Assembly: GCF_002571385.2 (NCBI RefSeq)
Contig: NW_019217918.1
Coordinates: forward strand, 288,704 to 352,703
DNA: 64,000 nucleotides
Direction: 5' to 3'
From: Stylophora pistillata
Taxonomy: Eukaryota
This document shows positions 187 through 2,284 of the stretch, one piece after another. Numbering within the stretch: position 1 is the first letter of the stretch; each line of letters starts with the position of its first letter. The notes beneath the pieces are model-generated. The model was not told where the DNA came from, searched no databases, and saw only the letters and a list, made by a program, of their open reading frames with translations. The translations under genes were made by a program, and so were the position numbers.

Positions 187-2284
187 CTTCTGTAAAAGTT
201 CTCCTGGTTATTTCCCACAAAGTAAGACCAAGTGAATACACATCAGCTCGTTTATAAGACTCAAACGATTTAAAAACTCCGCCTTCCAACAGCTCCGGGG
301 ACATGTATCTTGGGCTTCCCCTTCGTTTGTTTTCTGTGATGATCTTGTCTTGTGACCTATCGTGCACTACACCCAGTCCTAATCCTCCTATTGAACAAGT
401 CAGATTTGACTTCACCATAATGTTTTTCGATTTCAAGTCGCAATGTGCAATGGAGTACTTTTCCTTTCGTCCATAAATTTCACCATGCAAATGATTCAAG
501 CCGCGTGCAGCTGAGAGAGCTAAGGAGCACATCTCTTGAGCGTTAACAGTTCTGCGACTGAGGAAGTCATACAGTGACCCATTTTCATGAAATTCCATCA
601 CGATGCATCTGTATGTTGCTTTATTCCAAATAAATGCAGAATGGCAATGCTGCACTCTAAGAATGTTCTCATGGTTTCCTATTTTGTTGTTCACATCCAC
701 TTCATTCTTAAAGAACTTCTCCTCAGTAGGTAGGTACAATTTTGCCACAACATCATCACCATGCCAGATTCCTCTCCATATTTTTCCATATTTCCCTTCT
801 CCTATGACTTGAATTAAGTCCACATCCTGGGCGGCTGTGCGCTGAGAGAATTTTGACACTCCAGACCCACTACATTTTCCACATTCTCTAGCATTACAGC
901 TGCCATCTTCATGAAATGAAGCTGAATGACGGGCATATCTAAGATTTGGGTATCTACCATTTTTTAATTGTCTCTTTTGTAACAACTGATATACCACACA
1001 GACTACTACAATGCCAACAACAAGAGCAGCTATAGGAGCAAAAATACTCAACAAGATGAAGTTGGTGCGTTCAACTTTCTCAAATCTGGTGAGAGTAGAT
1101 GCAGCTAAACAGAGAAAATAGAGAAAATGGTAAATATAACCATACACATGTTAACAATCATGGAAAATGAATTCAATTATCTTATTAACCTTTGCATAAC
1201 ATGTTTATAATTCAGTGCCAAAATTTTTATACATCTGGGCATAATTTATATTGACCTCTATTATTCTCACTTCATAAGAAAAATCCCCGCTATTATTGGT
1301 CAATTTCGCAGGCCTGCTGAATTCAAAAGTTTGATTGAACTGAAATCTTCACAAATCTACAAAATACATTAGATTGCGAGTACATTGCTCTGTTTACCCT
1401 TCTCCTTAACAGAAATACAACTGAATCATTCTGTAAGATCATGAGTCAGGATAAAGGAACTGATTGGCAACTTAAGAGGCATGGAATTGTAAAACAAATT
1501 CTCCATTTTGGTACCCAAGAGAATGTGTGAGATCAGTATGGAAAATATGGAGAATTCTGGTAAGGTGTGAGGAGATAAGTCTATTTTCAAACTTATCAGG
1601 TTTCATAGCTAAGGGTATTTAGAAAATGTGAGATAGTTCTGCAAATTCTCAGATGTATGCACAGTAAAAGTCCTCAACAACTGTCAATAACAAGTAACAA
1701 GCGCTTACTTGATTCTGTTGATGGAAATTAAGGGGTAACATTCCAGTTACACAAATTTTCCTCACAACAGACAGCTGGAGTCACTGGATTCTCACAATTT
1801 ATCCTCTTGTATTGTGTTCTGAAAACAGCCCCTTGACACAACATAACGATCATGCTCAACCTGCTTGAGTACTGAGAAACAGCCCAGTCATGCATAGCAT
1901 CTCTCATTGGTATCTCCGCAATCACTACACATGCATTCTACTCCTCGATTGTCAGGAGGGGATGCAAGGGTCGCATTTTTTTGGCCTGTAAGGTAAAATT
2001 AGAAGACCTTTCAATCAAAATCAGCAGACTTCATTTATTATGATAATCCTCTGATCCCTAAGAGACCAGCAACTAATTTCTCTTTACAACATTGAGCTAA
2101 CCGCCTCCCGGTTAGCTCAATGGATAGAGCGCTGGACTGTTGTGCTGGAGGTCGAGGGTTCGAGCCCCGGCCGGACTAACACTCAAGGTCTTAAAATAAT
2201 TGAGAAGAATTTGCTACCTTCCTATAACATCAAGTAATAGTTAGATATTCTAGTCTTCTCGGATAGGGATGAATAAANATTATT

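Follow-up and report, generated by a model that had tools for sequence, protein, structure and literature searches.

The current analysis points to a receptor of stony corals that has kept the build of a TGF-beta-family type I receptor and has probably abandoned signalling. The gene, which lies on the minus strand of a 64,000-nucleotide stretch of the Stylophora pistillata genome (hereafter the window), is, judging from its sequence, the orthologue of ALK2 and likely the only copy in stony corals. An Activin_recp ectodomain with its Cys box, a transmembrane helix and a kinase fold are all present, as in a signalling type I receptor, whereas the GS domain, the L45 loop and a complete set of catalytic motifs are not. 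We lean, cautiously, towards a broader reading, namely that all stony corals gave up ALK2 kinase signalling and that the receptor has been an obligate pseudokinase co-receptor for at least 245 million years, with BMP signalling carried by ALK3/6 alone. This would be the mirror image of the zebrafish arrangement, and the path from a lost switch to a dead catalytic site would still be on view in living species.

The gene comprises six exons, four in the window (9022-8956, 5220-4945, 1985-1709 and 1104-187, all on the minus strand) and two beyond it. Exon 1 (8956..9022, 67 nt) provides the start codon and a signal-peptide-like leader and ends in a GT donor; it lies outside read coverage and was placed by protein match, corresponding to residues 1-23 of the 629-aa proteins described below and of XP_022789954.1. 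Exon 2 (4945..5220, 276 nt) encodes the first Activin_recp ectodomain, with 10 Cys and a PF01064 match, and exon 3 (1709..1985) the second, which is broken in the window and intact, at 279 nt, in transcripts. Exon 4 (187..1104) is a single 918-nt exon with AG/GT borders and an open frame at 188-1102, and it carries the transmembrane helix, the juxtamembrane segment and kinase subdomains I-IX with GLG, HCD, VAK and a replaced L45 loop. Within it, at approximate positions, the transmembrane helix (FILLSIFAPIAALVV...; 991..1065) resembles that of anemone ALK2 in an alignment with Nematostella and Actinostola, and the segment replacing the GS domain (838..890) contains a CxxC motif and is predicted to be disordered (pLDDT under 50). 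Positions 1..186 are the start of intron 4. Exons 5 and 6, beyond the window and a 2.9-kb gap (about G000:C135:285198-285331 and 284164-284376), are open and spliced and encode the rest of the C-lobe, the helix I basic patch, the tail and the stop. An earlier note on this DNA had described exon 4 and did not include the upstream exons, among them the broken ectodomain exon at 1709-1985.

Read evidence came from 8 of the 24 sequencing runs listed, from seven studies; four of the eight are on record as RNA and the remainder are unlabelled or of guessed type, yet yielded spliced contigs. Spliced contigs or reads cover exon 4 in 8/8 runs and the joint of exons 3 and 4 was likewise found in all eight. 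The four runs aligned to a longer stretch contained joints 2-3 (4/4), 4-5 and 5-6 as well, all of them GT-AG. Four database proteins of a single cluster represent the intact 629-aa product, each with two ectodomains, GLG and HCD.

When aligned as protein with human TGFBR1, exon 4 reads CSIGGLGLG against CCIADLGLA and HCD against HRD, both as had been noticed at first reading, while CSGSGVSKFSQRT faces GSGSGLPLLVQRT and RVQHCHSAFIWNKATYR faces GFIAADNKDNGTWTQ. The same comparison bears out that the FKBP12-binding LP after the GS box has become VS and that the L45 loop has been replaced beyond recognition. It was also correctly seen that the exon is fully open and keeps its Gly loop and Lys; the retained catalytic residues in the S. 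pistillata receptor are the Gly loop, beta-3 Lys, alpha-C Glu, catalytic Asp, Lys and Asn. By contrast, the description of a GS box cut to CSGSG needs revision: CSGSG is probably part of the replaced segment, where relatives read ECWSCQSESD or ECGKCSASKF.

A pseudokinase is defined by the loss of one of the VAIK Lys, the HRD Asp or the DFG Asp, and in this receptor it is the DFG-position Asp that has become Gly. The codon in question (383..385, minus strand) is GGA in the window, GGC in runs X11, X14 and X15, and GGT in X7, X16 and X17; an Asp-giving change was absent from one complete variant table and from the variants listed in the other runs. A base-call error is excluded by intact database proteins and reads with Gly. 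The earlier note had judged such an error unlikely, which stands, but its argument that the codon is two substitutions from Asp is incidental, since GGC and GGT are each one transition from an Asp codon. In a rarity check, a profile search provided 150 type I-like representatives, 3 from the coral family and 147 from outside it; the DLG Asp is kept in 146 of the 147 and HCD is present in 14. The Asp loss is therefore meaningful, whereas HCD is not diagnostic and should no longer be taken as the mark of a dead kinase. The only non-family representative with Asp replaced by Gly, P0483 (KAG5668093.1) of Polypedilum vanderplanki, also has HCD and is possibly an independent type I pseudokinase in a midge, as read from its sequence.

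From cnidarians to vertebrates, animals have type I receptors of the groups ALK1/2, ALK3/6 and ALK4/5/7. That the gene encodes a type I receptor was already evident in the earlier note; its placement as an ALK2 orthologue was not. Successive trees were built with 48, then 25, 18 and 26 rows, the rows dropped being mainly long branches and near-copies. The first tree of 48 rows left the position of the coral clade open. The 26-row tree, run under a mixture model, put the clade within ALK1/2 (100/99). In two other trees of the series its join with cnidarian ALK2 received 94/94 and 94/97, though this join is not starred. Grouping with ALK4/5/7 was rejected (p-AU 0.0001), as was grouping with five ALK3/6 rows (p-AU 0.0007), but not grouping with a single ALK3/6 row (p-AU 0.12); the coral stem is long (0.5-0.95). 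The start of the transmembrane helix and a C-terminal tail (KLM..KP...DVNIH) are common to coral, Nematostella and Actinostola ALK2 and absent from the bilaterian rows, and genomic protein fragments suggest that anemone ALK2 similarly has a single exon from the transmembrane helix to the kinase end. A GS motif occurs at only two loci in the S. pistillata genome, which by L45 loop and tree are ALK3/6 and ALK4/5/7. Since three type I receptors are described for Nematostella (PMC3169577), the coral gene fills the third place. Best matches by phmmer and Foldseek name the protein TGFBR1, a label that we rejected as a guide to orthology because ALK5 and ALK2 scores are close and the trees disagree. 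A stray paralogue was also considered and set aside on the tree position, the transmembrane and tail signatures, and the finding of no canonical ALK2 in the genome or among named coral matches. The ENA protein P0367, a diverged ALK2-like sequence, has HCD, an intact Asp and a GS motif that scores weakly (19 bits). It branches as the sister of the coral clade (93/91), although this join was flagged as possibly due to long branches, and may represent an intermediate.

An initial protein search returned 15 clusters at 61-100% identity among 23 matches, with Pocillopora, Desmophyllum, Acropora and Porites as named members. The family forms one clade (100/100) with a Stylophora-Pocillopora-Desmophyllum branch and an Acropora-Porites branch, which we take to correspond to robust and complex corals. 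That split is placed at 245 million years or more in PMC5730576. Motifs were counted in 113 family proteins spanning the kinase core, many of them near-copies from the same species. GSGSG is found in none of the 113 and CxxC stands in its place in all, and PF08515 (the GS domain) had no match in 7/7 full-length coral proteins and a match in 2/2 anemone ALK2 proteins. The Lys, Glu, catalytic Asp, Lys and Asn are kept in 113/113. The DLG position holds Asp in 26, Gly in 73 and Ser in 14; both HRD and DLG occur in 20, and Porites-type members retain all tested catalytic residues. The Asp-to-Gly change is conserved as GLG in close orthologues and does not extend to the 26 Asp-keeping proteins, Porites among them, a point missing from the earlier note. 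On a 27-row tree with the respective columns masked, Asp loss took 3 steps and HRD Arg/Cys exchange 6 steps; part of the complex branch is poorly split, so two Asp losses are possible instead of about three. The replacement of Asp in 87 of the 113 in about three steps, together with the six-step Arg/Cys switching, suggests that catalysis may be dispensable. The loss of GS and L45, on the sequences at hand, is common to all coral members found and older than the Asp loss.

Despite these losses, the kinase has remained under strong constraint, with a dN/dS (omega) of 0.10 (p about 1e-53 against 1) across five sequences, the window and 4/4 further loci. Taken with the transcripts, the GLG of close orthologues and the intact downstream exons, this upholds the earlier view of a full-length, expressed and conserved receptor with pseudokinase features. 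The N-lobe is only 33% identical to that of Nematostella and 50% of its columns are invariant in seven corals, so that it has been remodelled and then conserved, a pattern equally compatible with a new partner. Conservation is highest in the standard C-lobe core and in helices H-I (74-76% invariant). Five helix I basic positions, matched to human numbering via Xenopus and Bombina ALK2, are kept in 22/22 members reaching helix I; in human ALK2 these positions dock BMPR2, as described in PMC8368100. Structure prediction gave the kinase fold with high confidence (TM 0.93 to ALK5/ALK2), with the former GS segment disordered. A single transmembrane helix is predicted (helix 13-55 in the model, in which the kinase fold is present); the model of the full-length protein scored low (mean pLDDT 56) and served for secondary structure only. 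An Atlas search with the juxtamembrane segment and N-lobe returned generic kinase clusters only.

Compared with ALK2/ACVR1 as represented by Nematostella XP_001641146.2 and Drosophila Saxophone, the coral receptor shares the tree position, the 10-Cys ectodomain, the transmembrane and tail signatures, the kinase fold and the helix I basic patch. It differs in having no GS domain, no FKBP12-site Leu-Pro and no L45 loop, in the loss of Asp from most members, and, for the pocilloporids and a further lineage, in a doubled ectodomain. Both ectodomains have 10 Cys each, and PF01064 matches twice in P0025. As seen in P0025, P0047, P0076 and P0262, the duplication is of separate origin in the pocilloporids, where the copies are 49% alike, and in a second coral lineage, where they are 85% alike; a killifish ACVR1 has three ectodomain copies. 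The ectodomain tree was too weak for orthology, and only cysteines and identities were taken from these domains.

Based upon these features, we would give roughly an even chance to a specific role, in which coral ALK2 is a non-signalling, non-catalytic receptor that likely still joins complexes while ALK3/6 phosphorylates Smad1/5. With GS and L45 both gone, Smad output is unlikely even in the Asp-keeping species, and the retained ectodomain cysteines and helix I basic positions point to assembly. GS and L45 would have been lost on the stony-coral stem, leaving the catalytic residues free to decay thereafter, whereas binding of ligand and type II receptors, to judge from the cysteines and the basic patch, was presumably kept. 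Coral ALK2 would then complete mixed complexes with ALK3/6 and could damp signalling in those complexes where both type I positions are occupied by it, a behaviour that has been proposed for Saxophone in the fly. The sequence would fit a helping as well as a blocking role.

Several reports on other animals accord with such an arrangement. In zebrafish Acvr1-Bmpr1 complexes, kinase-dead Bmpr1 is described as functional, so that a mixed complex can work although one of its type I receptors lacks catalysis; that case is engineered, however, and the assignment is reversed, as Acvr1 supplies the essential kinase, the opposite division of labour (PMC8054026). Sax/Sax complexes are proposed to bind ligand without signalling (PMC10847725), and wild-type ALK2 is reported to form non-signalling complexes with activin (PMC12415261). 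These too are ALK1/2-class receptors that bind ligand without output, but they are catalytically intact and signal in other complexes. In Nematostella, knockdown of Alk2 alone is reported to leave the tested target unchanged and to add to the effect of Alk3/6 knockdown (bioRxiv 2022.06.03.494682), and the Alk2 kinase would accordingly be the easier one to lose. Inhibitor tests described for Montipora indicate that body patterning needs BMP type I kinase activity (bioRxiv 2024.09.29.615694).

An alternative that we consider unlikely, though it deserves weight, is that the receptor is a pure decoy, whose binding of ligand and type II receptors would have no effect other than inhibition, as with BAMBI or the ALK2-activin complex. 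GS, L45 and Asp are all gone, the helix I basic patch could sequester type II kinases, the at least two independent ectodomain doublings in corals could raise avidity, and the non-signalling ALK2-activin complexes offer a precedent. Also in favour of this reading, BAMBI itself had no match over the Pfam cut-off in the S. pistillata genome; PF06211 likewise matched neither the family proteins tested nor the receptor locus. BAMBI has no kinase domain. It is named as a pseudoreceptor in PMC3169577, and the coral protein resembles it in its type I-like ectodomain and presumed lack of signalling, but derives from ALK2 and has retained the entire kinase fold under constraint. A simple trap, moreover, needs no 300-residue kinase fold held at an omega of 0.10, and truncations without a kinase are already dominant negative.

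Less probable still is a new job for the receptor, whereby the remodelled N-lobe and the CxxC segment bind a non-Smad partner and serve a new signalling route or the reading of an expanded coral ligand set. The new beta-4/beta-5 motif and CxxC are fixed across both coral branches, and the S. pistillata genome has 25 TGF-beta domain matches, compared with the 6 ligands listed for Nematostella in PMC3169577. Such a partner is only hypothetical, however, and the strongest conservation lies in the standard C-lobe core and helices H-I. We would place lower again the possibility that the kinase is active and atypical, uncoupled from type II phosphorylation and, where Asp is lost, Mg-independent. The universally retained Lys, Glu, catalytic Asp, Lys and Asn, and the 26 proteins with an intact DLG, would agree with this, as would CASK, which has Gly at the DFG Asp position and is reportedly active without Mg. 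On the other hand, these residues also have structural roles, the repeated independent loss of Asp to Gly or Ser and the free Arg/Cys switching suggest released constraint, and neither GS nor L45 is available for Smad docking.

Rather improbable as well, by our estimate even more so, is a degenerate duplicate standing beside an ordinary ALK2 that assembly and searches missed. The genome assembly is broken into 5513 contigs, only a limited set of candidates was scored in the protein searches, and some canonical cnidarian ALK2 matches have no species name (P0016, P0121, P0246). Nevertheless, searches of this assembly with two canonical cnidarian ALK2 proteins found no second ALK2 locus or other type I locus, and none of the best 120 among 3051 matches to anemone ALK2 bore the name of a stony coral (top 7988 candidates scored). 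Canonical cnidarian ALK2 clusters also have 1-4 members, as opposed to up to 169 in coral family clusters.

A plain pseudogene, which the two stops and frameshift of window exon 3, the split RefSeq gene and the excess of protein-changing over silent differences described below might suggest, is refuted for the gene by intact spliced transcripts, an omega of 0.10, intact downstream exons and orthologues in both coral branches, in keeping with the earlier note; only the exon 3 of the window is disabled. This exon contains a TGA at 1888-1890, a 2-nt frameshift near 1807 and a TAA at 1728-1730, and its broken state explains why RefSeq has two gene fragments. The TGA is absent in 8/8 runs and the frameshift in 7/8 (X23 has 2 reads, none listed); the TAA site itself is absent from the run variant tables, and 4/4 of the 629-aa proteins have Ser there. 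All three lesions are confined to 279 bases out of a coding total of 1887, for which the chance is about 2% once the first lesion is placed, and exon 3 differs from the transcripts more than the other exons do (p 0.015). Between window and transcripts, 11 protein-changing and 2 silent sites are among those listed; exons 4-6, at 3 changing to 2 silent (p 0.34), speak weakly on uniform decay of the window allele. Three of the five exon-3 amino-acid differences match Pocillopora and are therefore not decay.

The neighbouring intron (2117..4497) has 161-nt and 219-nt near-identical overlaps flanking single-N joins at 2278 and 4122, seen as 99% direct repeats (2117-2277/4123-4283 and 3903-4121/4279-4497), and is presumably an assembly or haplotype tangle. 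A second copy of exon 3 was sought in the S. pistillata genome and not found. Skipping of exon 3 would keep the reading frame; a skipping joint was absent from the joints listed, and in other runs every loose end at exon 3 connected to exon 2. It is nearly an even call that window exon 3 is a dead duplicate whose live copy was lost in the tangle; that it is part of a null allele is somewhat less probable, and that it marks a haplotype skipping the exon is unlikely. Under each of these readings the gene is alive in the species, and only the copy or allele of exon 3 in the window is dead.

Regarding precedent, neither a coral ALK2 lacking the GS domain nor a kinase-dead one was found described in the literature, including by accession, in a search of mainly open-access main texts, nor in the available portions of PMC11846459, PMC3923803, PMC4320547 and PMC5522607; coral sequences may figure in published receptor trees, for instance in Fig. 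S1 of PMC11846459. Among natural cases, the closest one found is the tapeworm protein EmTRL of Echinococcus, likewise a natural TGF-beta-receptor-like protein with lost catalytic residues. It is far more decayed and probably type II-derived, with 1 of 6 key residues kept, no recognisable kinase domain and low expression (PMC10073696). The field has yet to explain the need of BMP complexes for two different type I receptors, and if the co-receptor reading is true, an animal order in which ALK2 persists only as a conserved shell without catalysis would offer a natural experiment splitting scaffold from enzyme roles. The Asp-keeping and Asp-lacking species would provide a ready series for the origin of a pseudokinase. 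The matter also concerns coral transcriptomes, in which the gene is labelled TGFBR1-like, BMPR1A-like or ACVR1C-like, and bears on the proposed role of BMP in skeleton growth.

Some further observations were made in the course of this work. Several of the TGF-beta ligand-domain matches in the S. pistillata genome are clustered on contigs C70 and C788, and the ALK3/6 gene (G000:C11:405601-406257) has ASDIIGSNQVTQ as its L45 loop as opposed to AADIKGTGSWTQ in other ALK3/6 rows. Within the window, a gene at 10777-11640 (+) lies head-to-head with the receptor; its frame at 10777-11175 had no Pfam match, and an EF-hand-like exon was read by eye near 11490-11640. A single-frame protein with RING and USP8-interacting domains at 31992-33026 (-) is presumably RNF41/NRDP1-like, a multi-exon gene at about 41800-51800 (+) has a faint ELAPOR1-like C-terminal match, and a rhodopsin-family GPCR frame occupies 57969-58886 (+). 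Two near-identical copies of a short Cys-rich coding stretch (L021:2466-3033 and L022:8677-9244) lie about 4 kb from each other, immediately downstream of the receptor gene.
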